Assembly: GCF_056746865.1 (NCBI RefSeq)
Contig: NZ_CM163382.1
DNA: 64,000 nucleotides
Strand: one strand, 5' to 3'
The notes under the pieces were generated by a model that was not told the DNA's origin, did not search any database, and saw only the letters and a list, made by a program, of their open reading frames with translations. Each line of letters begins with the position of its first letter. Position 1 is the stretch's first letter. Of the stretch, positions 15,452 through 49,563 are shown piece by piece. Both the position numbers and the translations under genes were made by a program.

Positions 15452-17293
15452 ATGGAGCAAAACCCGCAGTCACAGCTGAAACTTCTTGTCACCCGTGGTA
15501 AGGAGCAAGGCTATCTGACCTATGCCGAGGTCAATGACCATCTGCCGGAAGATATCGTCGATTCAGATCAGATCGAAGACATCATCCAAATGATCAACGA
15601 CATGGGCATTCAGGTGATGGAAGAAGCACCGGATGCCGATGATCTGATGCTGGCTGAAAACACCGCGGACGAAGATGCTGCCGAAGCCGCCGCGCAGGTG
15701 CTTTCCAGCGTGGAATCTGAAATCGGGCGCACGACTGACCCGGTACGCATGTACATGCGTGAAATGGGCACCGTTGAACTGTTGACCCGCGAAGGCGAAA
15801 TTGACATCGCTAAGCGTATTGAAGACGGGATCAACCAGGTTCAATGCTCCGTTGCTGAATATCCGGAAGCGATCACCTATCTGCTGGAACAGTACGATCG
15901 TGTTGAAGCAGAAGAAGCGCGTCTGTCCGATCTGATCACCGGCTTTGTTGACCCGAACGCAGAAGAAGATCTGGCACCTACCGCCACTCACGTCGGTTCT
16001 GAGCTTTCCCAGGAAGATCTGGACGATGACGAAGATGAAGACGAAGAAGATGGCGATGACGACAGCGCCGATGATGACAACAGCATCGACCCGGAACTGG
16101 CTCGTGAAAAATTTGCGGAACTGCGCGCTCAGTACGTTGTAACGCGTGACACCATCAAAGCGAAAGGTCGCAGTCACGCTGCCGCTCAGGAAGAGATCCT
16201 GAAACTGTCTGAAGTATTCAAACAGTTCCGCCTGGTGCCGAAGCAGTTTGACTACCTGGTCAACAGCATGCGCGTCATGATGGACCGCGTTCGTACGCAA
16301 GAACGTCTGATCATGAAGCTCTGTGTTGAGCAGTGCAAAATGCCGAAGAAAAACTTCATTACCCTGTTTACCGGCAACGAAACCAGCGATACCTGGTTCA
16401 ACGCGGCAATTGCGATGAACAAGCCGTGGTCGGAAAAACTGCACGATGTCTCTGAAGAAGTGCATCGCGCCCTGCAGAAACTGCAGCAGATTGAAGAAGA
16501 AACCGGCCTGACCATCGAGCAGGTTAAAGATATCAACCGTCGTATGTCCATCGGTGAAGCGAAAGCCCGCCGTGCGAAGAAAGAGATGGTTGAAGCGAAC
16601 TTACGTCTGGTTATTTCTATCGCCAAGAAATACACCAACCGTGGCTTGCAGTTCCTTGACCTGATTCAGGAAGGTAACATCGGCCTGATGAAAGCGGTTG
16701 ATAAATTCGAATACCGCCGTGGTTACAAGTTCTCCACCTACGCAACCTGGTGGATCCGTCAGGCGATCACCCGTTCTATCGCGGATCAGGCGCGCACCAT
16801 CCGTATTCCGGTGCATATGATTGAGACTATCAACAAACTCAACCGTATTTCTCGCCAGATGCTGCAAGAGATGGGCCGTGAACCGACGCCGGAAGAACTG
16901 GCTGAACGTATGCTGATGCCGGAAGACAAGATCCGCAAAGTGCTGAAGATCGCCAAAGAGCCAATCTCCATGGAAACGCCGATCGGTGATGATGAAGATT
17001 CGCATCTGGGGGATTTCATCGAGGATACCACCCTCGAGCTGCCGCTGGATTCTGCGACCACCGAAAGCCTGCGTGCGGCAACGCACGACGTGCTGGCTGG
17101 CCTGACCGCGCGTGAAGCGAAAGTTCTGCGTATGCGCTTCGGTATCGATATGAACACCGACCACACGCTGGAAGAAGTGGGTAAACAGTTCGACGTTACC
17201 CGCGAACGTATCCGTCAGATCGAAGCGAAGGCGCTGCGCAAACTGCGTCACCCGAGCCGTTCTGAAGTGCTGCGTAGCTTCCTGGACGATTAA
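15452..17293 (+). CDS. rpoD: RNA polymerase sigma factor sigma-70
   Basis: 613 aa; acidic region 1.1, conserved regions 2 and 4. Confidence 0.95.
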
Positions 17294-18002: not shown

Positions 18003-18078
18003 GGCCCCTTAGCTCAGTGGTTAGAGCAGGCGACTCATAATCGCTTGGTCGTTGGTTCAAACCCAACAGGGGCCACCA
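18003..18078 (+). tRNA. ileX: tRNA-Ile (anticodon CAU, ileX-like)
   Basis: 76 nt: 7-bp acceptor stem GGCCCCT/AGGGGCC, D-arm, anticodon loop CTCATAA, T-arm GTTGG-TTCAAAC-CCAAC, 3' CCA. Ile2 rather than Met assignment is from memory of ileX and from position after mug. Confidence 0.85.
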
Positions 18079-26076: not shown

Positions 26077-26293
26077 CAGCTTTTCCTTACAGAGGGTGAA
26101 TAAAAAAGCCGGTACCCACAAATGTGGATACCGGCAGGTACAAAACAGCATGGTCAGATAAAGTGGTTTTTCCCGGACATAAATGCTTCCCCTCTCTCAT
26201 CCGCCAGAGAAGTATCAGTCCGTTGTGTGCAATTCCGTTCTGCATGATGAAGAGATTCAACTGCCTTTTCGCAGGCCATTAACCACTATAAAC

Positions 26294-26329
26294 GATCGAT
26301 AGTAACGATCGATACCTGTTTTATTGATC
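26294..26329 (-). promoter_or_regulatory. agn43 phase-variation switch region (three Dam GATC sites, presumed OxyR operator)
   Basis: GATC at 26294-26297, 26307-26310 and 26326-26329 within 36 bp, about 220-250 bp upstream of the flu ATG. Confidence 0.65.
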
Positions 26330-26448
26330 GTTTTATTCTATTGATTGCAAGGCGGTCACGCAAGAGAAACAGGAGGATCATGAGGTGTTTGTGTCATGTT
26401 TTCAGTTGGTTAACGCAATGTAATCAGGCATTTCCCCTGGCAGACTGT

Positions 26449-27584: not shown

Positions 27585-29141
27585 ATGACAAGTATTCAAC
27601 AACGAGCAGAACTGCACCGCCAGATATGGCAAATTGCCAATGATGTCAGAGGTTCTGTTGACGGATGGGATTTTAAGCAATACGTTCTGGGCGCACTTTT
27701 CTACCGTTTTATCAGCGAAAATTTTTCCAGTTATATTGAAGCCGGTGATGACAGTATCTGTTATGCGAAACTGGATGACAGCGTAATTACTGATGACATT
27801 AAAGACGATGCCATCAAAACTAAAGGCTACTTCATCTACCCCAGTCAGCTTTTCTGCAACGTAGCGGCGAAAGCAAATACTAATGACAGGCTGAATGCAG
27901 ATTTAAACAGCATCTTCGTTGCTATCGAAAGTTCTGCTTACGGTTATCCTTCAGAAGCTGACATCAAAGGTTTGTTTGCTGATTTCGATACCACCAGTAA
28001 CCGCCTGGGTAACACCGTTAAGGATAAAAATGCCCGCCTGGCTGCGGTTCTGAAAGGGGTTGAAGGGTTAAAACTTGGTGACTTCAACGAACATCAGATT
28101 GACCTGTTCGGTGATGCCTATGAGTTCCTGATTTCTAACTATGCGGCAAATGCCGGTAAGTCAGGCGGTGAGTTCTTTACACCGCAGCACGTCTCCAGGC
28201 TGATTGCACAACTGGCTATGCACGGGCAGACCAGCGTTAACAAAATCTACGACCCGGCAGCGGGTTCCGGCTCACTGTTGTTGCAGGCGAAAAAACAGTT
28301 TGATAACCACATCATCGAAGAAGGCTTTTTCGGTCAGGAAATCAACCATACGACCTATAACCTGGCGCGTATGAACATGTTTTTGCACAACATCAACTAC
28401 GACAAGTTTGATATCAAGCTGGGTAATACACTGACTGAGCCACACTTCAGAGATGAAAAACCGTTTGATGCCATCGTTTCTAACCCGCCGTATTCGGTGA
28501 AATGGATTGGCAGCGATGACCCGACGCTGATTAACGATGAACGTTTTGCCCCGGCTGGCGTTCTGGCCCCCAAATCAAAAGCTGACTTCGCCTTTGTACT
28601 ACATGCGCTGAACTATCTTTCTGCCAAAGGTCGCGCCGCGATTGTCTGCTTCCCGGGTATTTTTTACCGTGGCGGCGCGGAGCAGAAAATCCGTCAGTAT
28701 CTGGTCGATAATAACTATGTCGAAACCGTGATTTCACTGGCACCGAACCTGTTCTTTGGCACCACCATTGCCGTCAATATTCTGGTGCTGTCTAAACATA
28801 AAACGGATACCAAAGTTCAGTTTATTGACGCCAGCGAACTGTTCAAAAAAGAGACTAATAACAACATCCTGACCGATGCTCATATCGAACAGATTATGCA
28901 GGTATTTGCCGGCAAGGAAGATGTTGCTCATCTGGCGAAATCTGTCACGTTTGAGACTGTTGTCGCGAATGACTATAACCTGTCGGTGAGCAGCTATGTG
29001 GAAGCGAAAGATAACCGCGAAGTGGTGGACATTGCTCAGCTCAACGCCGAGCTGAAATCTACTGTCGCCAGGATTGACCAGCTTCGCAGGGATATTGATG
29101 CCATCGTCGCTGAAATTGAAGGCGAGGAGCAGGAGGCATGA
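27585..29141 (+). CDS. hsdM: Type I restriction-modification system, N6-adenine DNA methyltransferase subunit
   Basis: 518 aa; AdoMet motif [10 protein letters not shown] and catalytic NPPY ([11 protein letters not shown]); N-terminal HsdM domain. Confidence 0.92.
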
Positions 29142-30343
29142 GTAGCGTGAACTTCTTGGAAAAGCTGTTGGATGGCGTTGAGGTCGAGTGGAAGACACTT
29201 GGGCAAACTTGCAAAATTGAAACAGGAAAGCTTAATGCGAATGCGGCTGTTGATGATGGAGAGTATATGTTCTTCACGACAGCCAAAGAGACAAGCAAAA
29301 TTGATAAATTCCGCTGGGATACAGAGGCATTGCTGATTGCAGGCAATGCGAATGTTGGTGAGGTGAAGCATTACATCGGCAAGTTTGAGGCTTATCAGCG
29401 CACCTATGTTCTGACAAATTTCGACGAAAATGTAAGTGTTAGATTTTTGTATTTTGTGCTTAGCCATAGCCTGAAGAAATATCTCGAGGAAAGAACAAAT
29501 AGCGCGGCAATGACATATATCGTGCTATCAACCTTAGAGAATTTCCCTATCCCCATCCCCTGCCCAGGCAACCCCCAAAAATCCCTTGCCATCCAGTCTG
29601 AAATCGTTCGGATTCTGGATAAATTTACTGCACTTACCGCTGAGCTTACCGCTGAGCTTAACATGCGTAAAAAACAGTACAACTACTATCGCGACCAGTT
29701 GTTGAGTTTTAAAGAGGGTGAGGTTGAGTGGAAGACTTTGGGGGAAATTGGAGATTTTACATATGGATATGCAGCCAAAGCCATGGATTCAGGAGATGCC
29801 CGTTTCGTGAGAATTACTGACATAAATAAAGACGGGAAGCTATCGAAAGAAAACCCAATGTACGTTGAATTAAATGAGGAAAATGAGAAATATACCTTAG
29901 ACAAAAATGATTTACTCATGGCAAGAACTGGGGCAACCTTTGGTAAAACAATGATTTTTGAAGAAGATTATCCAGCAGTATACGCTGGTTTTTTAATAAA
30001 GTTGAACCTAAATAAAACGATTATTAATGCCAAATATTACTGGCACTTTGCACAAAGTGATTTTTTTTGGGAACAGGCTAATAAATTAGTATCTGGTGGT
30101 GGGCAACCACAGTTTAATGCTAATGCACTGAAACAAGTCAGAGTACCTATTCCATACCCATCTCACCCTCAAAAATCTTTAGACGAACAGGGGCGTATTG
30201 TGGATATTCTGGATAAGTTTGATGCAATCGCAGCTTCCATCACCGAAGGTCTCCCGCGTGAAATCGAGTTACGTCAAAAACAATACGAATACTATCGTGA
30301 TTTACTGCTCAGTTTCCCAAAACCTGAAACTGTCAGTAAATAA
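29138..30343 (+). CDS. hsdS: Type I R-M specificity subunit (type IC architecture)
   Basis: 401 aa; ATG overlaps hsdM stop; two variable recognition domains separated by a conserved central region with TAELTAEL and conserved distal region ([24 protein letters not shown]). Confidence 0.9.
29633..29656 (+). repeat. 12-bp tandem repeat cttaccgctgag x2 in hsdS (TAEL x2)
   Basis: Two perfect tandem copies plus a 4-nt partial third (ctta), read directly; encodes LTAELTAEL in the HsdS central spacer. Confidence 0.9.
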
Positions 30344-30464: not shown

Positions 30465-33400
30465 ATGACTCATCAAACACACACCATTGCTGAATCCAAT
30501 AACTTTATCGTCCTTGATAAGTACATCAAAGCTGAGCAAACAAGCGACAGCTACCAGAGCGAATCGGACCTGGAACGTGAACTGATTCAGGACCTGCGGA
30601 ATCAGGGTTATGAATTTATTTCCGTAAAATCACAGTCGGCAATGCTGTCTAATGTTCGGGAACAGCTTCAGAGCCTCAATGGTGTGATGTTTAATGACAG
30701 CGAGTGGCGGCGCTTCACGGAGCAGTATCTGGACAACCCCAGCGATGGTATTCTGGATAAAACCCGTAAAATCCATATCGACTATATCTGCGACTTTATT
30801 TTTGACGACGGGCGACTTGAGAACATCTATTTGATAGATAAAAAGAATCTCATGCGCAATAAGGTGCAGATTATCCAGCAGTTTGAACAGACGGGTTCTC
30901 ATGCTAACCGTTATGACGTCACGATCCTGGTTAATGGTTTACCGCTGGTGCAAATCGAACTAAAAAAACGCGGGGTGGCGATTCGTGAGGCTTTCAACCA
31001 GATACATCGTTACAGTAAAGAGAGTTTTAACAGCGAAAATTCCCTGTTTAAGTATCTGCAACTGTTTGTCATTTCTAACGGCACCGATACCCGTTATTTT
31101 GCCAACACGACAAAGCGCGATAAAAACAGTTTTGACTTCACCATGAATTGGGCGAAATCAGACAACACGCTGATTAAAGACCTCAAAGACTTTACCGCTA
31201 CCTTTTTCCAGAAACATACTCTGCTGAATGTTCTGGTGAACTACAGCGTTTTTGACAGTAGTCAGACGCTACTGGTGATGCGACCGTACCAGATTGCCGC
31301 CACCGAGCGCATTCTGTGGAAAATTAAGAGTTCCTTTACAGCGAAGAACTGGTCAAAACCGGAAAGCGGTGGGTATATCTGGCACACTACCGGTTCTGGT
31401 AAAACCCTCACCAGCTTTAAAGCCGCGCGTCTGGCAACAGAGCTGGACTTTATTGATAAAGTCTTCTTTGTGGTCGACAGGAAAGACCTCGATTACCAGA
31501 CCATGAAGGAATATCAGCGTTTTTCGCCAGACAGCGTCAACGGCTCGGAAAATACCGCAGGCCTTAAACGAAATCTGGATAAGGACGATAACAAAATTAT
31601 CGTCACTACTATTCAGAAACTCAATAACCTGATGAAAGCAGAAAGCGACCTGCCTGTATATAATCAGCAAGTGGTGTTTATATTTGATGAATGCCACCGC
31701 AGCCAGTTTGGAGAAGCGCAGAAAAACCTGAAGAAGAAATTCAAACGCTATTATCAGTTTGGTTTTACCGGCACCCCTATTTTCCCGGAAAACGCCTTAG
31801 GCTCAGAAACAACCGCCAGCGTATTTGGCCGTGAATTGCATTCGTATGTGATTACCGATGCGATTCGTGACGAAAAAGTGCTCAAATTCAAGGTGGACTA
31901 CAACGATGTGCGGCCACAGTTTAAGTCTTTAGAGACAGAAACTGACGAGAAAAAACTGAGTGCGGCTGAAAATCAGCAGGCGTTTCTTCACCCCATGCGT
32001 ATTCAGGAAATCACGCAATATATCCTGAATAATTTCCGCCAGAAAACCCACCGTACTTTCCCTGGTTCCAAAGGTTTTAATGCCATGCTGGCAGTAAGCA
32101 GCGTGGATGCTGCAAAAGCCTATTATGCGACGTTTAAACGGTTACAAGAGGAAGCCGCTAATAAATCTGTAACTTATAAACCGCTGCGTGTTGCGACAAT
32201 CTTCTCCTTTGCCGCTAATGAAGAACAAAATGCCATTGGTGAAATTTCCGATGAAACTTTTGATACCAGCGCAATGGACAGCAGTGCTAAAGAGTTTCTT
32301 GACGCTGCAATTCGTGAGTATAACAGCTATTTTAAAACTAACTTCAGCACCGACGGTAACGGTTTTCAGAACTACTATCGTGATTTAGCCCAACGGGTTA
32401 AAAATCAGGATATCGATCTGTTAATTGTCGTGGGAATGTTTTTAACCGGCTTCGATGCTCCAACATTAAACACGCTATTCGTCGATAAAAACTTGCGTTT
32501 TCACGGCCTGATGCAGGCATTCTCCCGCACCAACCGCATTTATGACGCGACTAAAACCTTCGGTAATATTGTCACGTTCCGGGATCTGGAACGCTCAACC
32601 ATTGATGCCATAACGCTGTTTGGTGATAAAAATACCAAAAATGTGGTTTTAGAAAAGAGTTATGCAGAGTATATGGAAGGCTTTACTGATGCTGCCACTG
32701 GTGAAGCTAAACGCGGCTTCATGACAGTAGTTTCAGAACTGGAACAACGGTTCCCTGACCCTACCAGTATTGAAAGTGAAAAAGAGAAGAAAGACTTCGT
32801 TAAACTGTTTGGCGAATACCTGCGTGCCGAGAATATCCTGCAAAACTATGATGAATTTGCCACGCTAAAAGCCCTGCAACAAATCGATCTTAGCGATCCT
32901 GTTGCGGTAGAAAAATTCAAAGCAGAACATTATGTGGATGATGAAAAGTTCGCTGAATTGCAAACAATTCGTCTCCCTGCTGATCGCAAGATTCAGGATT
33001 ATCGTTCTGCCTATAACGATATTCGCGACTGGCAGCGCCGTGAGAAAGAAGCTGAGAAAAAAGAGAAATCAACCACTGACTGGGATGACGTAGTTTTTGA
33101 GGTCGATTTGCTGAAGTCTCAGGAAATAAACCTGGATTATATCCTTGGACTGATTTTCGAACACAACAGACAAAATAAAGGCAAGGGCGAAATGATCGAA
33201 GAGGTCAAACGCTTAATTCGTTCAAGCCTGGGGAACCGTGCTAAAGAGGGCCTGGTGGTCGATTTTATTCAGCAAACGAACCTGGATGATTTACCGGACA
33301 AAGCCAGCATCATTGACGCATTCTTTACGTTTGCTCAACGCGAACAGCAACGTGAAGCAGAAGCCTTGATCAAAGAAGAAAATCTCAATGAAGAGGCGGC

Positions 33401-33581
33401 GAAACGCTATATTCGCACATCTTTAAAACGCGAATACGCCACCGAAAATGGCACGGAATTAAACGAGACACTGCCCAGACTCAGTCCTTTAAATCCGCAA
33501 TATAAAACGAAAAAACAGACTGTTTTTCAAAAAATTAGCGCATTTATTGAAAAATTTAAGGGGGTGGGTGGAAAGATTTAG
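30465..33581 (+). CDS. hsdR: Type I R-M restriction endonuclease/helicase subunit
   Basis: 1038 aa; helicase motif I (TGSGKT) and DEAD-like box ([12 protein letters not shown]); length and sequence recall EcoR124I HsdR. Confidence 0.92.
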
Positions 33582-33731
33582 GGAAGGTGCGAATAAGCAG
33601 GTCATTTCTTCCCAAGCTGACTCGCTGATTAAAATTTCGCGGATCTGGGCCGATTTTTTTCCCGCAAACACATCGAATCGGCCTGTTTAGGCTATTTTTT
33701 CCACCATTTCTGGCGTTATTTCCGGTTTTTA

Positions 33732-36015
<2,284 letters not shown>

Positions 36016-36184
36016 TCAGGAACTTGTTCGCACCTTCCCTAAAAAAAGCAGATGATTTTCATTATTATCGCAGGATAATTGTGCGCATATTTTCCATGCG
36101 GATAAGAATACTTATTCATGGAAATAATAATTTCCAGGTCATCAAGTGAAATCTGTTAACGCAAAGAGTGTTCCACCCTGCCCC

Positions 36185-36715
36185 TCACACCATCTCAAGT
36201 TTTACCGCGTCATAACCACACTGAACCAAACATTCACCGCAACCATTACATATTGCAGCATCGATTACAGGCATTCCGCTTTCGTTGATTGAGCATGCCT
36301 GAAGTGGGCATAGATCGACACACTGTTTGCAACTGCGCACCGGATTAACACAATTTGCTTTAAAAACGGGACGCAATCCGGTGTCGAAACGAGCCTGCGG
36401 ACGTAATGCCTCAGTGGAACATGCAGCTATACATAAGCCGCAGCCGTCACAACTGGCAAATTCAATCACCAATTGCGGATAGCCATCTTCATGCCGGTTG
36501 AGAATGCCCATGGGACAGGCATTAATACACAAATCACACTGCGTGCACTGCACACGAAACTGCGCATCAGGTAACGCGCCGGGAGGTAAGGAGTGCACAG
36601 GTAATATCGGTGTTGTTACCGGGCGTGCCGCGCTGACAAAGGCCCGAAATAGCCCACGTCGGCTAACATACCGATGAGACATTAACTCCTGATAATAATT
36701 TTCTGACTTACTCAT
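36185..36715 (-). CDS. Ferredoxin-type protein with multiple 4Fe-4S motifs (NapF-like)
   Basis: Several CxxCxxCxxxCP motifs; start taken at MSKSENYYQ... whose ATG overlaps the upstream chaperone stop (ATGA). Confidence 0.65.
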   Translation of the reverse strand: MSKSENYYQELMSHRYVSRRGLFRAFVSAARPVTTPILPVHSLPPGALPDAQFRVQCTQCDLCINACPMGILNRHEDGYPQLVIEFASCDGCGLCIAACSTEALRPQARFDTGLRPVFKANCVNPVRSCKQCVDLCPLQACSINESGMPVIDAAICNGCGECLVQCGYDAVKLEMV

Positions 36716-37308
36716 CCAAGAAAGAGCCGTTTGGTTGGAGGATTTAGTGCCTGTTGCTGCTGATAATCCTGCAGAAACAGTGTCGCAATCTGCGCCAACT
36801 TCGCGTAAAACGCACTGACAGGGTTGCGCTGTAATAACTCCAGATAACGATATCCCCACGGCAGCAAATGCGTTTCCAGCAATTGATTCGCTGCGCGTTC
36901 TTTCCCCTCTGCCAGCAAGGCGCTACAGGCAAGCAGCATCAGGCCAAACTGATCTTCCGGTTCATTTATACAGGAATCAAACGTCATTCCCTGATCACGA
37001 AGGAACTTCCGGTACTCGGCAGTGCTGTCCCCCATCAACAGATTATCTTTTTCGAGATATACCGAACCCCAGGGTGGTGCTGGCATTTCACCCTGTCCTT
37101 CAAAAAGAACAGAAAATTGCCAGAGATGCTGCTCCTCATCCGGGATTGACCAGTCAGAGCATAATTCAGCCACCTGGCGGGGATCGCGCCAGGGGTATAT
37201 CTCATCCAATGTCGGCAGACAGTCAAACAGTGCCCGAACTTCAGGACGCGTGGGAGAATAGTAAAACAGGGCACCAAGAATACGCACCAGTACGGCTGGG
37301 GAAGGCAT
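36712..37308 (-). CDS. TorD/DmsD-family redox enzyme maturation chaperone
   Basis: About 199 aa from MPSPAVLVRILGALFYY...; position after the membrane anchor as in dms/ynf operons. Confidence 0.6.
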   Translation of the reverse strand: MPSPAVLVRILGALFYYSPTRPEVRALFDCLPTLDEIYPWRDPRQVAELCSDWSIPDEEQHLWQFSVLFEGQGEMPAPPWGSVYLEKDNLLMGDSTAEYRKFLRDQGMTFDSCINEPEDQFGLMLLACSALLAEGKERAANQLLETHLLPWGYRYLELLQRNPVSAFYAKLAQIATLFLQDYQQQQALNPPTKRLFLG

Positions 37309-37362
37309 GATTAAACACTCCTGAAAGCAGAGGTGGCCGGGCAAACACCGGCCACTCACAGG

Positions 37363-38139
37363 TTACATAGGGATGGTCCAGAGGTTGTAGAAACCGATCC
37401 GACCAACCAGTTCAGCAGCAATAACCACCAGTGCAGTCATCGCCAGCACAGCTTGCCCACTTTTCATGCGTGCATAGAGCAGTGCCCCAATAACACCCAG
37501 CGCCAACAGAATGGCCTGAGCGGTAAACCAGGTGGACTGCGCAGCGGTAATAACGCCATCAGCACTCATTAGCGTGGAAATATAACCCGGACGCAAACAG
37601 AAACTCGCCAGAATCGCCAGTACACTTACCAGCAGCCCCAGACGACGAACGCCAAACAACGCCGCCAACATGCCGCCACCGATAAGTGCAGTTAGCACCA
37701 TCATCATGGTGGTGTAAGAGGTACTCCAGGTCGCTACCGTTGCCAACTGGTAAATACGCGGGATGGCAAAGATAAACACGACTCCAATCGCAGCGGCCAG
37801 CCATACCAGTACTTTACAAAGCATTGCACCACCGCGATTTAACAGCAAACCGAGAGATCCCAGTCCTCCGGCTGCGGCAAAACATGCCGAAAGCACGATT
37901 TCGTTACTCATAGGAGAACTGCCGACACGGAATAGCATATTCAGCGCTCGCAGCGGCTGCCCGACATGAATGGTGCCAAGCACAACACCCACACCAAACA
38001 AGCACATCACCGAAAAGAGACCAATCGCCATACGACGTGGCTCAATTAATCCCATGGCACCGCCAATCAGCAGCAGAATAAACGCCCCCACTGCGCTCTG
38101 GGTAAATACGGTGAAAAAGACCAGTGGTAACTCATGCAT
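37363..38139 (-). CDS. DmsC-like membrane anchor subunit
   Basis: 258 aa, eight predicted hydrophobic segments; overlaps the B-subunit stop by 8 nt. Confidence 0.75.
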   Translation of the reverse strand: MHELPLVFFTVFTQSAVGAFILLLIGGAMGLIEPRRMAIGLFSVMCLFGVGVVLGTIHVGQPLRALNMLFRVGSSPMSNEIVLSACFAAAGGLGSLGLLLNRGGAMLCKVLVWLAAAIGVVFIFAIPRIYQLATVATWSTSYTTMMMVLTALIGGGMLAALFGVRRLGLLVSVLAILASFCLRPGYISTLMSADGVITAAQSTWFTAQAILLALGVIGALLYARMKSGQAVLAMTALVVIAAELVGRIGFYNLWTIPM

Positions 38140-38758
38140 GGCGCACCTCCCGAATGTTCATGATCGCCCCTTCTTTGTCGCCCGTAGGTCGCGCCAGCGG
38201 ATGCGGTTTAATTATCAGGTTAGGATGCGTAAACGAAGCGGCAGGTAACGGTGCGATTTCATTTTCACTGCCATATTTCGCCCGCAATTCGTCGATAGGA
38301 CCAAAATCCAAAGCTCGCTGTGGACAGGACTCAACACAAATAGGCGGGAGATTTTTCTCCAGTCGGTCAAGGCAACCATCACACTTACGCATCACTTTAG
38401 CTTGTGTATCAAACTGCGGTGCACCATAAGGGCAGCGCATTTCGCAGTAACGACAGCCCACACAAACACTGTCATCCACCAGCACCAGGCCATCTTCTTC
38501 GCGTTTGTGCATCGCGCCGGTTGGGCAACCTGCCACACAGGTCGGTTCATCGCAGTGATTGCAGGCAATCGACAAATAGTAAGTGAAGGTATTGTTGTGC
38601 CAGCTTTCACCTTCTTTCACCCAGCTACCGCCACCATATTCATACACGCGGCGCAGCTTCGGTCCGACATCCAAATCTTTATTATCCTTGCAGCTTACCT
38701 GGCAGGTTTTGCAGCCAGAGCAACGCGAGGAGTCAACGTAAAAACCATACTGTTTCAT
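38132..38758 (-). CDS. DmsB-like 4Fe-4S electron-transfer subunit
   Basis: 208 aa with four Cys-cluster motifs (CSGCKTCQVSC, CNHCDEPTCVAGCP, CVGCRYCEMRCP, CDGC...C). Confidence 0.85.
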   Translation of the reverse strand: MKQYGFYVDSSRCSGCKTCQVSCKDNKDLDVGPKLRRVYEYGGGSWVKEGESWHNNTFTYYLSIACNHCDEPTCVAGCPTGAMHKREEDGLVLVDDSVCVGCRYCEMRCPYGAPQFDTQAKVMRKCDGCLDRLEKNLPPICVESCPQRALDFGPIDELRAKYGSENEIAPLPAASFTHPNLIIKPHPLARPTGDKEGAIMNIREVRHA

Positions 38759-38771
38759 TGCGGATCACTCC

Positions 38772-41207
38772 CTAAGCGCGTTTGATTTCAACCAGGTTGG
38801 TATGTTGCGGGTTCCCTTTCGCCAGCGGCGACGGCAGGTGGCTGGTCAATGTGTTAATACATCCACCCACGTCCACACCGTTGCTGTCCAGTCGGGTCCA
38901 CGCGCCTTGCGGCATTGCCACCACGCCCGGCAGGATGCGCTGTGTCACCTTGCAGGGGATCTCCACCACACCGCGATCGTTGAATACATGGACCATATCG
39001 CCTGATTTCAACTGACGCACGCTGGCGTCTATCGGGTTGATCCAGACTTCATCCGGTACCGCTTCATGCAGCATCAGCACACTGGCATATGTTGAGTGCG
39101 TGTGACCTTTGGTGTGAAAACCGCTCATCTGTAGCGGATACTTTGCTGTCAGACTCTTGTTCAGATGGGACTCTGTCACTATACAAAATTCAGGAACAGC
39201 CGGAATGCGATCTCCTTCCGGTAGTGTCCAGGCTTTAGCCAGTTCCGCCAGAGTGTGCGAGTAAATCTCAATCTTCCCGGAAGGTGTCGTCAGTGGACTG
39301 GCAACCGGATCATGGCGGAAATCAGCAAGGATAATACTGTCCTCATCACGAGTACCTTGCTGATCGATAACCCCCATATTCATTGCAACTTCCCATTCAG
39401 GCAGATATGATCGCTTCTCTTTAACTTGTCCGTAATGCTTCGCCATCCACTCTGCCTGAGTACGCCCCTCAGTAAAACGCTCTCTTACCCCAAGATGCCC
39501 CGCAATATCTGCACAGATATCATAGGTACTGCGTACTTCCCACATCGGTGTGATCGTTTTTTGCATTGCAATCATGTAATGGTGAGAACCGGCTGCATAG
39601 GAACTGTCCACCAGATCCTCGGCTTCTAAGTAGCTAGTTTCTGGAAGAAGGATATCGGCAAAGCGGGCACTGGCAGTCATATGATTATCAATAACCACGA
39701 TAGTTTCGCACAGGCTGTCATCTTCAAGTATTTTGCGTGTACGATTGATATTTCCATGTTGATTCAGAAGTGCATTCCCGGCCTGGTTGAAGAACAGTTT
39801 AATACCGGTTTTCAGTTTATCCGCGCCTTTAACCCCCATAGTGGTGGCTGTCATTTTTTCCGGACTTTGAATCGCATCTGTCCACAGATAGCAGGGGATT
39901 GACACCTTAACGGGATTTTCACCAATCGGCAGAGCAGGAACACCATAAGGTGTTCCGTATGTCCAGTTCCCATTGTTGGTTCCTGGCAATCCAAAATGAC
40001 CCGTCAGGGCAGGAAGTATCTGAACCGCTCTGGAAGTCTGTTCACCATTTGCATGACGCTGTGGCCCCCATCCCTGGGCAATGAAACAGGCCCGAGCTTC
40101 GGCCATTTCACGTGCCAACTGGCGAATACGAATAGCCGGGATGCCACAGATATCTGCCGCCCATTCAGGTGTTTTTTCGACGCCGTCATCACCGTTACCC
40201 AGAACATAGTCTTTATAACTGGCATTTGGTTTCGCCGTTTCCGGAAGGGTGCTACGATCATAACCGACACAATAAGTATTGACTCGTTCTTCGTCGATCA
40301 GATTTTCTTTTATCAACGTGTGTGCAATAGCTGCTACCAGTGCAGCATCGGTTGTAGGGCGAATTGGTAACCATTCAGCATGTTCTGTAACAACAGAGTC
40401 TGTATAGCGCGGATCGATGATAATCACCCGGGCGCCTGATATTTCCAGCGCACGGCGCAGTTCTTCAACTTGCCCACCACCGGACATCCGAGTCTCAGAT
40501 AAATTCAGACCAAAAAAAACCACAAGATCAGAATGCGCAATCTGGCTAAAATGACTGGCAAACTGTACTCCTGTAGCACCATACGTGTAAGATGTGGCGG
40601 TAAAGTTTTGAGCGTTTGAGTAATTATTGTAATACTGCAGAAAACCGCCATTCAGGTTCAATAACCTTTTCCATGCGGGTGTTCCTTGGTTATGATAATA
40701 CGCGCCAGATTGATAATTAAAATAGATTGCTTCATTTCCATATTTTTCAGAAACGCGCTTTAATTCAGCGGCAATAAAGGCTGTGGCCTCATCCCATGAA
40801 ATACGTTTAAATTTCCCTTCTCCGCGTTTACCAACACGTTTCATCGGATATTTAATCCGGTCAGGGCTATAAACACGCCAGCGGCTGGAACGACCACGTA
40901 GGCAAGGTCGAATCTGATGTTCACCAAAAACAGAGTCGTCCTTCGCGTCCTCGGCTTCAATACGAACAATGCGTCCGTCTTTTACGATAACTTTTAATGG
41001 ACAACGACTTCCGCAATTCACCAGGCAAGCACTATGCCTGACGGTTTCAGCATTTTCGTTGGTTTTACCGGTATCCGATGTTTCGGCCCTGACGGTTGTG
41101 GAAAAAGGCAAAGTGATGGCGTTGCTTAGTGCAACGGCAGCTCCCAATTTTGCAGTTGTAGTCACCGCATCACGTCGGGAGATTGTTGTATTTAACAACT
41201 CTTTCAT
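38772..41207 (-). CDS. DMSO reductase-family molybdopterin oxidoreductase catalytic subunit (DmsA/YnfE-like)
   Basis: 811 aa; twin-arginine signal (TISRRDAVTT), N-terminal Cys cluster (HSACLVNCGSRCP), molybdopterin domains. Confidence 0.85.
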   Translation of the reverse strand: MKELLNTTISRRDAVTTTAKLGAAVALSNAITLPFSTTVRAETSDTGKTNENAETVRHSACLVNCGSRCPLKVIVKDGRIVRIEAEDAKDDSVFGEHQIRPCLRGRSSRWRVYSPDRIKYPMKRVGKRGEGKFKRISWDEATAFIAAELKRVSEKYGNEAIYFNYQSGAYYHNQGTPAWKRLLNLNGGFLQYYNNYSNAQNFTATSYTYGATGVQFASHFSQIAHSDLVVFFGLNLSETRMSGGGQVEELRRALEISGARVIIIDPRYTDSVVTEHAEWLPIRPTTDAALVAAIAHTLIKENLIDEERVNTYCVGYDRSTLPETAKPNASYKDYVLGNGDDGVEKTPEWAADICGIPAIRIRQLAREMAEARACFIAQGWGPQRHANGEQTSRAVQILPALTGHFGLPGTNNGNWTYGTPYGVPALPIGENPVKVSIPCYLWTDAIQSPEKMTATTMGVKGADKLKTGIKLFFNQAGNALLNQHGNINRTRKILEDDSLCETIVVIDNHMTASARFADILLPETSYLEAEDLVDSSYAAGSHHYMIAMQKTITPMWEVRSTYDICADIAGHLGVRERFTEGRTQAEWMAKHYGQVKEKRSYLPEWEVAMNMGVIDQQGTRDEDSIILADFRHDPVASPLTTPSGKIEIYSHTLAELAKAWTLPEGDRIPAVPEFCIVTESHLNKSLTAKYPLQMSGFHTKGHTHSTYASVLMLHEAVPDEVWINPIDASVRQLKSGDMVHVFNDRGVVEIPCKVTQRILPGVVAMPQGAWTRLDSNGVDVGGCINTLTSHLPSPLAKGNPQHTNLVEIKRA

Positions 41208-41287
41208 TTTATTTTCTCACATTGTTTTCATAATTATTATTAATACGACATATGAGGTAATCATAAAGAATTAGTAATTCATCATGA

Positions 41288-41301
41288 TTGATTATGATCA
41301 A
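41288..41301. promoter_or_regulatory. FNR-box (TTGAT-N4-ATCAA) upstream of the molybdoenzyme operon
   Basis: ttgattatgatcaa is a perfect match to the FNR consensus, centred about 87 bp upstream of the ATG at 41207; a second FNR/CRP-like site gtgatcattatcaa lies at 41337-41350. Confidence 0.5.
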
Positions 41302-41413
41302 GTGAGATTTGGTGCTTAGCACAAATATAAATATTTGTGATCATTATCAAAATGTAAATGATAACGCATCTTTATTATCATTTGAGATTAAATATCACGC
41401 AGCGTTAATCTAA

Positions 41414-43870
<2,457 letters not shown>

Positions 43871-44465
43871 CAAGAGAACGCAACAGCGCACTTGCTTTGC
43901 CACAGTTGAATTTTGTGCCGTAACGATGTGCAAGCATGTAAGCATAAGGAGTCAAGGTATAGCGTGTTACTTAGTTACTCGGATTAACAATCCCAACGTA
44001 CAGAGCGGCGGATTTAGAGAGTCAGCGCAGTCCCTGCTCCGGCAGTCAGTGGCAGGCGGCGTACTGAAGCAAACCATTATCGATACCGGCATCGGCGATA
44101 CCATCGGCATGCTGATGTCACACGGCAATATTTCTCCCTACATCATGGCGTGGTTGATAACCGTGCTGATCCGTCTGGCAACGGGTCAGGGCGTGGTCTC
44201 AGCCATGACGGCGGCGGGGATTATTAGCGCAGCAATCCTCGACCCGGCAACCGGTCAACTGGTGGGCGTCGACCCGGCGTTGCTGGTGCTGGCAACAGCG
44301 GCTGGCTCCAACACGCTGACCCATATCAACGATGCTTCGTTCTGGCTGTTCAAAGGCTACTTTGATCTGTCGGTGAAGGATACGCTGAAAACCTGGGGTC
44401 TGCTGGAGCTGGTAAACTCCGTGGTTGGCCTGATAATCGTGTTGATCATCAGCATGATTGCATAA
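43871..44465 (+). pseudogene. GntP-family permease, C-terminal fragment truncated by IS5
   Basis: The 303-aa track ORF starts inside IS5; only the distal ~198 codons look like a gluconate-type permease C-terminus. Confidence 0.6.
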
Positions 44466-44514
44466 CGTTGATACCGCTCTGGCGCACAGCGCCAGAGCGG
44501 TTTTCCATCCTGCC

Positions 44515-45210
44515 TCAACAATCCTCAATAATCAGATATACCGCCTTCACCGGACCATGCACCCCAACCACCTTGATAAGCTCAATATCCGCCGTCGAGC
44601 TGGGTCCACTGATGATATTAATGCACGATGGCATACGCTCACCGGCCTGTGCTTTCTGATGCAGTTTTTCTGCCAGCTGCGCCACGCGCGGCAGGATGGT
44701 GCTTTTACGCAGCACGAAAATAGAGGACTCCGGCAACAGGCTCAGGGAGCGCCCGCGCTCCGGTGCGGAAAACAGCACCACGCCGCCGGACTCGGTCAGG
44801 CCATATTCGGCATACACCACGCCGACTTTCGCCTGCTCGGCCTGGGTAATATTTTCGCTACCACGCGCCGGATCCCAGACCACGGCGTTGCATTCCTGCT
44901 GCAAGCGTTCGGTGATGCCCAGCTCCACCAGCCGGCTGTCGCCGCTCAGCACCACCGGCTGCTGACCCAATTCTTCGCACAGGCGCAGTGCCGCGTCTGC
45001 GGCCTGGTCCTCGCTGGTCAGTTCGCAGCGGGCCAGCATCACTTCGCTGGCAAACTGGATAAACGCAGAGCAGCGCTGCTCGGGGCTAAGCTCGGTCAGG
45101 CGCTCGTTGGCATAGTTGTTAACCGGTGCGGCATCCGCTTGCGGTTCGAAGCGCAGCGGGCGACCCAGCGCCTGGGCGATGGTGTTTAAAAACGCGGTAC
45201 GGTTATCCAT
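44515..45210 (-). CDS. ykgG: Lactate utilization protein C (LutC/YkgG family)
   Basis: 231 aa from MDNRTAFLNTIAQALG...; start overlaps ykgF stop. Confidence 0.85.
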   Translation of the reverse strand: MDNRTAFLNTIAQALGRPLRFEPQADAAPVNNYANERLTELSPEQRCSAFIQFASEVMLARCELTSEDQAADAALRLCEELGQQPVVLSGDSRLVELGITERLQQECNAVVWDPARGSENITQAEQAKVGVVYAEYGLTESGGVVLFSAPERGRSLSLLPESSIFVLRKSTILPRVAQLAEKLHQKAQAGERMPSCINIISGPSSTADIELIKVVGVHGPVKAVYLIIEDC

Positions 45211-46630
45211 TCTTTTTCTCCTGCGCCTGATGTTTCTTAAACCAGCTGCGGAAGCTCTCGCCGTCAGCATCAGGCAGATCGCGCGCCTCCATCCAGTCAC
45301 CAATCGCGCCAACCTTGAGCGGGGTTTTGCCGCCATTGATAAACCAGCTCGCCGCATGCGCGCCCGCCATCATCCCGACTTTCCACAGCCCCGGATGGCT
45401 ATTGGCATAGGCGAACATCTTGATCGCCCGTCGCTCGGCTTTCGGCGTAATGCCCTCCTCGGCCATCACCCGGCGATGACGCAGGATCAGTTTTGACAAC
45501 GGAATACGCACCGGGCAGACGCTGTCACAAGCCGTGCACAAAGAACAGGCGTACGGCAGGTCTTTAAAATCTTTATAGCCGCCGAGCAGCGGAGAAATCA
45601 CCGCGCCGATAGGGCCGGGATAGATAGAGCCATAGCCGTGCCCGCCGATGTGGCGGTACGCCGGACAGGTGTTCATACAGGCTCCGCAGCGGATGCAGCG
45701 CAGCACATCGCGAAACTCTGAGCCCAGCACCTGCGAGCGACCGTTATCGACAATCACCAGATGGAACTCTTCCGGTCCGTCAACGTTGTCCGCATCACGC
45801 GGGCCGGTCAGCCAGGTGTTGTAGCCCGTCAGACGTGCGCCCACGGCGCTGCGCGCCAGCATGGTAATCAGCACATCCACCTCGGCAAAGGTCGGCGCGA
45901 TACGCTCCATGCCCATCACCGCAATGTGCGTTTTCGGTAGCGTGGTGCACATGCGCGCGTTGCCTTCGTTGGTCACCAGACACACCGAGCCGGTTTCCGC
46001 CACGGCAAAGTTACAGCCAGTAATACCGATTTCGGCACTGAGGAAATCCTCGCGGATCTTCTGACGAATGAACAAGGTCATAGCTTCCGGGGTTTCCGGG
46101 CCGTCGTACCCCAGACGTTCGTTCAGCACGCGGCGGATCTGGTAGCGATCTTTATGAATCGCCGGAACCACGACGTGCGAAGGCGGATCCTGATCCAACT
46201 GCAGGATATATTCCCCGAGATCGGTTTCGATCACCTGGATTCCGGCATCCTGCAACACATGGTTGACGCCGATTTCTTCGGTCACCATCGACTTGGACTT
46301 CACCACCTTCTGCGCATTTTTACTCTGCGCGACCTGCAAAATGTAGCGAGTGGCATCTTCTTTGGTTTTGGCGAAATAGACGTGTCCGCCGTTTTCCGTC
46401 ACTTTCTCGGAGAGTTGGTACAGGTAAGCGTCGAGGTTGCTCAGAACGTGATCGCGGATCTGGCTGGCACGATCGCGCCATTCTTCCCAGTGGCCTAACT
46501 CATCGACCATTTTTTGCCGATTCGCGCCGATACGCTCCTGCGCATTAGCCACGGCTTTGCGCATAATCGGATCTTCTATCTGCTGACGAATACGCAGTTT
46601 AAATTCTACATCGCTGGTTTTTATCGACAT
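45203..46630 (-). CDS. ykgF: Lactate utilization protein B, iron-sulfur (LutB/YkgF family)
   Basis: 475 aa; two 4Fe-4S motifs (CIRCGACMNTCP, CSLCTACDSVCP). Confidence 0.9.
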   Translation of the reverse strand: MSIKTSDVEFKLRIRQQIEDPIMRKAVANAQERIGANRQKMVDELGHWEEWRDRASQIRDHVLSNLDAYLYQLSEKVTENGGHVYFAKTKEDATRYILQVAQSKNAQKVVKSKSMVTEEIGVNHVLQDAGIQVIETDLGEYILQLDQDPPSHVVVPAIHKDRYQIRRVLNERLGYDGPETPEAMTLFIRQKIREDFLSAEIGITGCNFAVAETGSVCLVTNEGNARMCTTLPKTHIAVMGMERIAPTFAEVDVLITMLARSAVGARLTGYNTWLTGPRDADNVDGPEEFHLVIVDNGRSQVLGSEFRDVLRCIRCGACMNTCPAYRHIGGHGYGSIYPGPIGAVISPLLGGYKDFKDLPYACSLCTACDSVCPVRIPLSKLILRHRRVMAEEGITPKAERRAIKMFAYANSHPGLWKVGMMAGAHAASWFINGGKTPLKVGAIGDWMEARDLPDADGESFRSWFKKHQAQEKKNG

Positions 46631-46640
46631 CTCTTTCCCC

Positions 46641-47360
46641 TCAGCGGCTCATCAGCACTTCAGCAATATGCATCACTTTGACCGGCTGGCCTTCCCGTTG
46701 CAGTCGACCGCCAATGTTCAGCAGGCAGCTAACGTCTGCGCCAATCAAAAATTCCGGCTTTGCGTCCATCAGATGTAATACTTTCTCTTTCACCATCTCA
46801 CCGGATATCTCGGCCATCTTGACCGAGAACGTCCCGCCAAAGCCGCAACAGGTATCCTGATCGGCAAACGTCAACAGCTCCAGTCCGCGCACGTTTTTCA
46901 GCAGCGTAAGCGGCTCTTCCTTCACTCCCAGTTTGCGGGTCAGGCTACAGGAAGGATGATACACAGCGCGGCCCTGCAGGCTGGCACCAACGTCCACCAC
47001 ACCCAGTTTGTTGACGATAAAGGAGGTGAGATCCTGCATACGCGCGGAAACTTTCTCAGCACGCAGCGCCCATTCCGGTTCATCGGCCAGATACGTCGGG
47101 TAGCTTTTAACCGCGTAGGTGCAGGAGCCCGCCGGGGAGATAATCGGATCGTCGTTGTCTTCCAGCGCGGCGATCAGGTTTTTCATCCCGGGGATCGCCT
47201 CTTTGATGTAACCGCTGTTGATGGCTGGCTGACCGCAACACCCTTGCTTCTCGGGGAAATTAACGCGACAACCCAGTTTTTCCAGCAGCAATACGGAGTC
47301 TCGTGCCATCCGTGATTTCAGTGCGTCACCAATACAGGTGACAAAGAAATTTACATTCAC
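46641..47360 (-). CDS. ykgE: Lactate utilization protein A (LutA/YkgE family, CCG domain)
   Basis: 239 aa; cysteine-rich CCG motifs. Confidence 0.9.
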   Translation of the reverse strand: MNVNFFVTCIGDALKSRMARDSVLLLEKLGCRVNFPEKQGCCGQPAINSGYIKEAIPGMKNLIAALEDNDDPIISPAGSCTYAVKSYPTYLADEPEWALRAEKVSARMQDLTSFIVNKLGVVDVGASLQGRAVYHPSCSLTRKLGVKEEPLTLLKNVRGLELLTFADQDTCCGFGGTFSVKMAEISGEMVKEKVLHLMDAKPEFLIGADVSCLLNIGGRLQREGQPVKVMHIAEVLMSR

Positions 47361-47434
47361 AATAACTACTCCATTGCTTCATTTCTGTTTATTGCGCTTG
47401 ATATCGCGATATCAAACAAATGTTCATTCGTATT

Positions 47435-49132
47435 TCATGCCCAGTTTTTATGTTTGCTGGTTTTACCAATACCTGGATTCATAGTGTTGGTCGGATCATT
47501 TTCCTGATAAAAACGTGCCAAATTTTCCGGCGCTTTATACAGATGGCCGACATTGTGTTCCGCCGGATATTGCGCTCCGCGTTGGCGCAGTAATTCCAGC
47601 ATCTGTTCTTTTAACGCGTGGGCATCTACGCCTTTTTTAACGATATAATCCTGATGGAATACATGGCACATAAAATGGCCGTAATAGAGTTTATGCACCA
47701 ACTGACTGTCAATTTCCGCAGGTAAATACTCATACCATTCGGTATCATTGCGGCGTAATGCAATATCCAGCGCGAGAATATCCTCAACCTCGTCAGAATG
47801 AACGGCCTGATAACGAATGGCAGCACCCGCGGCGGCAAAACGATGCAGAAACGCCTTACTGCCCTCTTCCGCGGTACAGGTAAAGAACGCGCCCTCGGCC
47901 GATTTAAAATAGTCCGTTAACCATGCCTGGGCTTCGGCCACACCCTCGCCGGACATTTTCAACATCAGATGGTGTTCATAGTTATCGCGCCAGGTCTTCA
48001 TCCGCGCCGGGAGATGGCTCGGGAACAGATGGCTAAAAGCCTGCATCGCGCGGTCAGTAAAGTGCGGGCGAAAGATCTTCACCTTCTCAAGTATGGCCTC
48101 GGTACGCCCCTTCAGGTTGAAGAAGAACGGCATTTTGTCCGTGCCAAGTTTGTCGATCATCAGGAAGGTATCTTTGCTGTATTTCTCTGCAATATCATAG
48201 ATATCGCGGTGCATATACTCCCCAGCAACCGGCAGGTTTGTAAAATTCGCCAGGATGTGGCGGCGAATCTCAGTCAGGACATCAGTCTGATTGGTACCGA
48301 TATAAAAGACCTGCTGGTTCTTCTCGGCTTCAAAGGTATCCAGACGTACGGCAAACACCGCTAACTTGCCCGCGCAGCCAGAGGATTCAAACAGGCGATC
48401 CGGGTCAGCGTTGTAACGTGCTGGCGTGTCGGCATTGATGTCCCGCACGCGGCTAACATAGTCGTGATCGTGCGCGTGACGTCCGTCATGGTTGACGAGC
48501 GCGGCTTCAATCACATTGTTATCCAGCCGGGCAAGGATTTGCTCTGGCGTCTGACCTAGCTCAATGCCAAGGTGATTGACCAGCTGCAAGCGTCCCTGTT
48601 CATCAATGCGGGCAAACAGCGACATCTCGGTGTAAGCCGGGCCTCGCTGGACCAGAGAACCGCCCGAGTTATTACAGATACCGCCGATAACCGACGCGCC
48701 GATGCACGAAGAGCCGATCACCGAATGCGGCTCACGGCCAAACGGCTTCAGCGCCCTTTCCAGCGAGTACAGCGTGGTGCCCGGATAAGCCAGCACCTGC
48801 TTGCCCTCATCCAGCACATGCAGACTGTCCAGCCGCAGCGTGCTGATAATGACGATCTCGCGGTCGTAGTCATTACCATTTGGCGTCGAACCCTCGGCCA
48901 GGCCTGTGTTCGACGCCTGCATCAGGATTATTTTATCAGCCTCAACGCAGGCGCTGAGGACTTTCCAGAGTTCAAGCAAAGAGCCGGGGATAACCACCGC
49001 CAGAGCATCACCCTGACCCGAGCGGAATCCCTTACGGTAACGCGCAGTTTTTGACGGTTCGGTGAGGATATGAGCAGGGCCAACCAATTGGGTAAGAGTC
49101 GTCAAAAAGGTCTTATTATCAGTATGTTTCAT
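47435..49132 (-). CDS. FAD-dependent quinone-linked D-lactate dehydrogenase (Dld-like)
   Basis: 565 aa; FAD-binding region (IGSSCIGASVIGGICNNSGGS); collinear with remembered E. coli Dld. Confidence 0.85.
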   Translation of the reverse strand: MKHTDNKTFLTTLTQLVGPAHILTEPSKTARYRKGFRSGQGDALAVVIPGSLLELWKVLSACVEADKIILMQASNTGLAEGSTPNGNDYDREIVIISTLRLDSLHVLDEGKQVLAYPGTTLYSLERALKPFGREPHSVIGSSCIGASVIGGICNNSGGSLVQRGPAYTEMSLFARIDEQGRLQLVNHLGIELGQTPEQILARLDNNVIEAALVNHDGRHAHDHDYVSRVRDINADTPARYNADPDRLFESSGCAGKLAVFAVRLDTFEAEKNQQVFYIGTNQTDVLTEIRRHILANFTNLPVAGEYMHRDIYDIAEKYSKDTFLMIDKLGTDKMPFFFNLKGRTEAILEKVKIFRPHFTDRAMQAFSHLFPSHLPARMKTWRDNYEHHLMLKMSGEGVAEAQAWLTDYFKSAEGAFFTCTAEEGSKAFLHRFAAAGAAIRYQAVHSDEVEDILALDIALRRNDTEWYEYLPAEIDSQLVHKLYYGHFMCHVFHQDYIVKKGVDAHALKEQMLELLRQRGAQYPAEHNVGHLYKAPENLARFYQENDPTNTMNPGIGKTSKHKNWA

Positions 49133-49563
49133 GGAGGGCGGCTCTCCGCTCCTTATATCAGGGCCAGTGAAAATGGCTATAAGTTCATTTGTATGACAAA
49201 GCAGAATATTCCCTCAATCAATATCCACATGCAATACCCCATTTTATTTCTTTCGGTACCGCTCACATTTTTTAATGAAATTACCACCGCCATATAATTC
49301 ATACCTCGCCCTTTGAGGGGATGCCAAAACACTTATTTATTGCAAAGATCATCCCATACCTATTAATGATTAACTCTAATGGGTGTTGTAATATTTAGTG
49401 GTTATTCATATTTAATAAAAAAAATAACATTATTTATACAATTATTAACCTTTATAACTTTATTTCACTGAAGCGATTCAGTTAGCATTTTTTATTTTAT
49501 TATTCAGGTAGCTTCCTTCCCCATAAATATAGCTCAGTCTAAAAAAGTAAATCGGGAATTGTA

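Follow-up and report, generated by a model that had tools for sequence, protein, structure and literature searches.

ISKpn26 is an insertion sequence (IS) of the IS5 family, IS5 group, which was first described in Klebsiella pneumoniae. It is 1196 bp long and is flanked by a 4-bp duplication (PMC8023600). IS5 itself targets YTAR, with a 4-bp duplication, is biased to sites outside coding sequences and drives recombination between IS copies (PMC5009759). Among the type I restriction-modification (RM) systems, the closest described relatives of the one discussed below are EcoR124I and EcoR124II, which are of type IC and whose restriction subunit is available as structures 2w00 and 4be7 of the PDB.

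In the window, that is the whole stretch of 64,000 nucleotides that was analysed, a copy of ISKpn26 stands directly behind the stop codon of an intact hsdR gene of this type (Table 1). We favour, with a probability of roughly 0.7, the reading that ISKpn26 inserted long ago at the hsdR stop, and that the DNA on its far side was exchanged afterwards by recombination between IS copies.

Table 1. Coordinates in the window of the RM genes, the insertion sequences and the DNA segments beyond hsdR.
Feature	Coordinates	Strand	Basis
hsdM, methyltransferase subunit, type I (EcoR124 / type IC-like) RM	27585..29141	+	518 aa ORF; TIGR00497 hsdM, 647 bits
hsdS, specificity subunit	29138..30343	+	401 aa ORF; NCBIfam S-subunit models match weakly; matching genomes annotate restriction endonuclease subunit S
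hsdR, intact	30465..33581	+	1038 aa ORF; TAG stop at 33579-33581
TTAG, IS target tetranucleotide (YTAR), contains the hsdR stop	33578..33581		junction sequence; empty site in L007 (E. coli 3908) gatTTAG/tagtaac
Stretch replacing 916 bp of native DNA 3' of hsdR	33582..51542		about 18 kb; reference is the E. coli 3908 locus, free of the IS
ISKpn26 copy 1 (IS5 family)	33582..36038	-	2457 bp including nested IS; terminal repeats 33582-33597, 36023-36038; flanks TTAG/CTAA
Nested IS3-family element, 1258 bp	34516..35773	-	TG...CA ends; NF033516 IS3 family transposase
DMSO/selenate-reductase family (dms) operon: A, B and anchor subunits, DmsD-like chaperone, 4Fe-4S protein	36039..41413	-	TIGR02166 (A subunit), annotation of locus L004; CTAA at each end
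ISKpn26 copy 2	41414..43870	-	same nested element at the same position; flanks CTAA/CAAG
Lactate-utilisation cargo: truncated GntP-family permease gene, lutC, lutB, lutA, dld, lctP	43871..51538		annotations of loci L003 and L009; lctP TIGR00795

The type I R subunit is accompanied by hsdM and hsdS, in the order hsdM, hsdS, hsdR on one strand. The hsdR gene is the only long open reading frame (ORF) that ends at this TAG. Its product matches the hsdR model TIGR00348 with 765.9 bits, and its residues 1-1038 align to residues 1-1038 of EcoR124I HsdR (PDB 2w00_A) with 2272.8 bits, which agrees with the statement of the initial annotation that the coding sequence is preserved. The C-terminal domain is included, since residues 881-1038 also align with the C-terminal construct 5j3n. 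Nine hsdR alleles, from chromosomes with the IS, chromosomes without it and P1-like plasmids, were compared: all of them (9/9) encode 1038 aa and end in ...GVGGKI before the stop, including the IS-free alleles of E. coli 3908 and of P1-like plasmids. The comparison with IS-free homologues that the initial annotation had proposed as a check thus reveals no longer native C-terminus. The HsdR protein is predicted to be unchanged by the insertion, the TAG and all 1038 codons being kept because the target tetranucleotide remains on the gene side of the junction. In annotations, hsdR at this locus should be called intact.

Positions 33567-33601 of the window read ...ggt gga aag att TAG followed directly by GGAAGGTGCGAATAAGCAGG, and 33582, the base after the hsdR TAG, is the first of the inverted repeat GGAAGGTGCGAATAAG, which belongs to an element of the IS5 family. 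In E. coli 3908 (locus L007) the last 1000 bp of hsdR are 100% identical to the window and no IS is present: the sequences agree up to ...gatTTAG, after which E. coli 3908 goes on with tagtaacaaaagg. Since this allele continues natively past TTAG, the window leaves the native sequence exactly at 33582, and the earlier claims that the IS terminus lies one base past the TAG and that the stop falls inside a 4-bp TTAG flank of the YTAR form are both borne out. At least 40 further genomes have the empty site at 100% identity.

In its native form the gene ends with a triple in-frame stop, TAG TAG TAA (L007 9998..10006). With ISKpn26 in place the two back-up stops are lost, and the frame is closed next by a TAA four codons on, which comes from the terminal repeat of the IS (window 33579..33596). 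A 63-codon ORF on the minus strand (33556..33747) starts in the IS and crosses its terminus to finish within the last part of hsdR; in many genomes it is found as the RefSeq hypothetical protein WP_306417990.1. It owes its existence solely to the junction and is most likely spurious. Of the 362 YTAR sites that the window contains, nine (2.5%) coincide with the stop of an ORF of 200 aa or more. YTAR contains TAA or TAG, so the coincidence with a stop codon is unremarkable by chance, and an IS5-family insertion flush with a stop is an expected minority outcome.

A scan for intrinsic terminators was carried out on both sides of the comparison. The segment 33300..34600, which covers the 3' end of hsdR and the first kb of the IS, has four weak terminator sites versus 1.8 +/- 1.4 in shuffled sequences, which gives no terminator beyond the level of chance, and the site nearest the stop (33680-33693) consists of a 5-bp stem followed by ATTTTTT. 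The native stretch scanned has one site (1.9 +/- 1.6 in shuffled sequences), located about 980 bp past the stop and beyond the 916 bp that were lost. The scan supports neither the loss nor the gain of a terminator, and the claim that a native terminator had been replaced is left without support, the lost 916 bp having no detectable intrinsic terminator. An Rfam search found no RNA family at the junction; its matches lie elsewhere in the window. It is plausible that hsdR transcription reads through into the IS, antisense to the transposase gene, and the effect of the insertion on hsdR expression would be expected to be small.

With its 2457 bp, the unit next to hsdR, copy 1, is double the length of an IS5-family element. 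The window contains four instances of the 12-mer GGAAGGTGCGAA, which form two inverted pairs, one at 33582/36038 and the other at 41414/43870, versus 0.39 matches on average in shuffled sequence. The terminal repeats are imperfect and about 16 bp long (GGAAGGTGCGAAYAAG), with 15 of 16 positions matching in copy 1 and likewise in copy 2. A 261-aa C-terminal fragment of the transposase (33729..34514, minus strand) matches the IS5 family transposase model NF033581 with 310 bits (cut-off 140). The end of copy 1 proximal to hsdR is the 3' end of the transposase gene; as this gene is on the minus strand, it converges with hsdR.

Without the nested element and the 3-bp duplication that goes with it, copy 1 amounts to 934 + 262 = 1196 bp. 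This reconstructed sequence is identical at 1187 of 1196 positions to the intact copy of strain PEC148 that RefSeq annotates as ISKpn26, versus 92.6-95.4% identity to copies annotated as IS5. The name IS5 given initially was thus right for the family to which the terminus belongs and wrong for the element, which should be annotated as ISKpn26 with a nested IS3-family element. Neither copy is bordered by a direct 4-bp duplication of the YTAR form, and the TTAG on the left of copy 1 alone fits. The missing duplication can be ascribed to later recombination and does not count against the identification as ISKpn26.

The nested element has the ends TGTAGTGG and CCACTACA and a 3-bp target duplication, ATG, at 34513-34515 and 35774-35776. 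The intact ISKpn26 of locus L003 aligns to the window up to 34515 and resumes at 35774, with an overlap of 3 bp, and intact copies at the same junction elsewhere do likewise. The insertion splits the transposase gene into parts of 261 aa and about 65 aa, so copy 1 cannot make its own transposase. Full-length Rfam matches (150 bits) to isrC (RF01387), an Hfq-binding sRNA, are located on the minus strand at 35583..35705 and 43415..43537, inside the nested element and over the start of its first ORF.

The two ISKpn26 copies differ at 7 of 2457 bases, six of which are in the approximately 500 bp by the left terminus. All seven differences are in the ISKpn26 parts; the nested element does not differ at all between the copies, and the ATG duplication is present in each. 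Copy 1 is a mosaic: its first ~500 bp share their SNPs with the hsdR-junction lineage, and the remainder matches copy 2. In strain CS5L, the nested IS is present in copy 2 only, while the surrounding 6.7 kb are 100% identical to the window. These sequences suggest, as the simplest reading, that the nested IS spread between the direct repeats by gene conversion. The reciprocal SNP pattern in copy 2, sought as the trace of a crossover that integrates a dms circle, was not found, and the SNP mosaic does not single out unique crossover points.

The native sequence resumes far beyond the junction. Positions 10917..19000 of L007 match 51543..59626 of the window (99.7%), and L007 10001..10916 (916 bp) has no counterpart. 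The earlier statement that the native 3' region was replaced therefore holds in that this flank is absent from the window; its absence seems to result from a later IS-mediated rearrangement and not, as had been supposed, from the insertion. A simple-insertion intermediate would have ISKpn26 followed by TTAGtagtaacaaaagg, that is TTAG, the IS, TTAG and then tagtaac. This reciprocal junction was searched for with a chimeric query (right end of ISKpn26, TTAG, native flank) and is missing from all of the 5426 complete genomes of E. coli searched. In the window, too, a TTAG is lacking beyond the IS, so that the plain insertion initially described is one no more.

The dms segment between the two ISKpn26 copies is 5.4 kb long. 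It is 89.9% identical to the module of the P1-like plasmid pL37-2, in which both CTAA sites are uninterrupted; the two ISKpn26 copies thus mark two independent insertions around dms. In P1-like phage-plasmids, dms (L006 3444..8809) has on one side cre, which is annotated as a site-specific integrase, and on the other the gene of the c1 repressor. The dms-bearing P1-like phage-plasmids also carry hsdMSR, with about 96.7% DNA identity, adjoining phd/doc.

The lactate cargo (7.7 kb) ends at the terminus of an ISEc52-like IS3-family element, at 51539. Positions 44084..52025 of the window are 98.1% identical to the Klebsiella IncF plasmid p69-1, and the match runs into the ISEc52-like element, which is also carried by the island. 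As the island and the Klebsiella plasmid share this element, the right-hand crossover can be placed inside it. The lactate cluster is a second, accessory one, which shares about 82% identity with the core ykgEFG genes and is found in only 97 of the 5426 E. coli genomes. The outer right flank of copy 2, CAAG, is not a YTAR site. No intact GntP-family permease gene was found, the Klebsiella plasmids examined having an even shorter gntP' fragment.

The 13,429-bp circular sequence pRHBSTW-00386_2 (CP056566.1) was deposited as a plasmid and has no replicon type in PLSDB. It contains one IS5, the same junction between the IS and CAAG-gntP', the lactate module and the chromosomal genes fbpC, mmuM and mmuP, and it looks like a circle excised by recombination between IS copies, or an assembly product. 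A group II intron (Rfam match at 52026..52112; ltrA at 52116..53639) splits the ISEc52-like element (51539..~55000), in whose region an ALIL frameshift pseudoknot is located, at 54639..54755. The intron-interrupted structure is present in the empty-site genome too. The tRNA-Met(CAT) gene (18003..18078), just 3' of rpoD (15452..17293) and ahead of the Ag43 / GTPase / hsdMSR island, is probably the attachment site of the island. An IS102 RNA match (RF00124) at 26095..26331 adjoins the Ag43 gene.

The junction between hsdR and ISKpn26 occurs in 203 of the 5426 complete E. coli genomes. An assembly artefact is rejected on this ground, and the junction, present and annotated in about 200 public E. 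coli genomes, is already known. None was seen on plasmids among the 5000 best-scoring PLSDB matches listed. The six loci inspected all have one and the same left junction, and their right flank varies (CTAAaaaaagc, CTAAgactcag, CTAAgataatt or CAAGagaacgc). This flank consists of the dms operon in the window and in CS5L, of two unrelated sequences in CP131_Sichuan and NT1N25, and of the truncated permease gene in PEC148 and strain 165. The element at the junction of NT1N25 is an ISKpn26/IS5 hybrid. The presence of several right flanks among the 203 genomes points to an old insertion followed by IS-mediated recombination.

Other explanations have to be weighed against this one. That the IS shortened or altered hsdR, the TAG being a stop made at the junction and the enzyme defective, would agree with a terminus that abuts the stop, and was otherwise an a priori possibility raised by the initial annotation; it is ruled out by the native TAG of the IS-free loci, the alignment with the crystallised EcoR124I HsdR over its full length and the equal length and C-terminus of the nine alleles. 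The TTAG at the hsdR stop might also be a recurrent hotspot, in which case the 203 genomes would reflect many independent insertions of ISKpn26 or IS5. YTAR is indeed a preferred target and insertions that spare a gene survive (PMC5009759), the hsdR alleles that carry the junction range from 97.9 to 100% identity, and one IS copy is largely IS5-like. However, the orientation of the IS and its ISKpn26-type first ~75 bases are the same in all six loci (6/6), even in the IS5-like hybrid, and the TTAG duplication which fresh independent insertions would show is seen in 0/6, so that recurrent insertion appears very improbable.

A one-step arrival deserves more credit, although we consider it unlikely. 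On a plasmid of the Klebsiella type, ISKpn26 would already have been joined to the lactate module when it attacked TTAG in a replicative or cointegrate-type event. The product would have been resolved via the shared ISEc52-like element, and a simple insertion would never have existed in the island. The lack of the reciprocal junction in all 5426 genomes is what this route predicts, and ISKpn26 has been suggested to spread in a replicative-like manner (PMC8023600). The lactate module, moreover, is attached to this IS at the E. coli loci examined, and is otherwise typical of Klebsiella IncF plasmids, where it adjoins ISEc52. Against it, ISKpn26 is absent from the gntP' end of those Klebsiella plasmids that were examined, whose gntP' fragment is shorter, and the CAAG between the IS and gntP' is a non-canonical target. 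The right flanks of CP131_Sichuan and NT1N25 (L002, L008), which correspond to neither module, are more easily accommodated by a resident IS with later recombination.

In the favoured history, an old insertion followed by exchange between IS copies, the transposase-distal end of ISKpn26 would have been joined to the TTAG overlapping the hsdR stop in an ancestor of the E. coli lineage. The DNA beyond the IS would later have been exchanged by homologous recombination between IS copies. One exchange, using ISKpn26 on the left and the ISEc52-like element on the right, would have brought in the lactate module, of the type known from Klebsiella plasmids, at the cost of the second TTAG and of 916 bp of native flank. 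In another exchange, the dms-family operon would have come to lie beside hsdR along with the ISKpn26 insertions that it carries at two CTAA sites, leaving two direct copies of ISKpn26. The IS3-family element may then have entered one ISKpn26 copy, from which gene conversion would have copied it to the other. The order of these events and the recombination routes are what we infer from the comparison of the loci; that the insertion came first is deduced, no simple-insertion intermediate being present in the 5426 genomes.

A broader reading can be offered tentatively, at somewhat less than even odds: the ISKpn26 at the hsdR stop might have served as a permanent docking site at which recombination took place, capturing cargo from other replicons in turn, and CP056566.1 could be an excised intermediate. 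The cargo would comprise the dms-family operon, which is also found on P1-like phage-plasmids, and the lactate module of Klebsiella IncF plasmids, and the nested IS would then have spread between the copies by gene conversion.

The observation that started this analysis is thus confirmed and its interpretation partly supported: the element is known and the junction ordinary. In itself the junction matters little, since YTAR holds a stop codon, so that insertions flush with a stop are expected, and they persist because the gene is spared. The locus is a clean worked example of a single IS junction that stays fixed while the DNA beyond it is repeatedly swapped.

Copy 1 shares with ISKpn26 the terminal repeats GGAAGGTGCGAA(T/C)AAG, the length of 1196 bp, a flank of the YTAR type and a DDE transposase of the IS5 type. 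It departs from the reference element in that its transposase gene is split, the direct 4-bp duplication is absent and its sequence is mosaic with copy 2. The IS5 of E. coli K-12 (insH copies) is of the same family, has the same terminal repeats and YTAR target, and is also a known substrate of recombination between IS copies, but the ~150 bases that adjoin hsdR are of the ISKpn26 type. As in a composite transposon, two direct copies of ISKpn26 bracket the dms operon, each at a CTAA site. Unlike in a composite transposon, both transposase genes are broken, and the outer flanks, TTAG and CAAG, do not form a duplication, which indicates that the ISKpn26-dms-ISKpn26 unit was not placed by transposition from its outer ends.

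The RM system resembles EcoR124I and EcoR124II, whose HsdR of 1038 aa is matched here over its full length, and the same hsdR gene is annotated as "EcoR124 family" in some genomes. Unlike these systems, the one described here is chromosomal, on an island adjoining a tRNA-Met(CAT) gene, and its specificity subunit varies among strains. The hsdR alleles of P1-like and other plasmids end in ATA-TAG, whereas the allele of the window ends in ATT-TAG. The resulting ATAG is not a YTAR sequence and hence no IS5 target, which may explain why the IS is absent from the plasmid copies examined.
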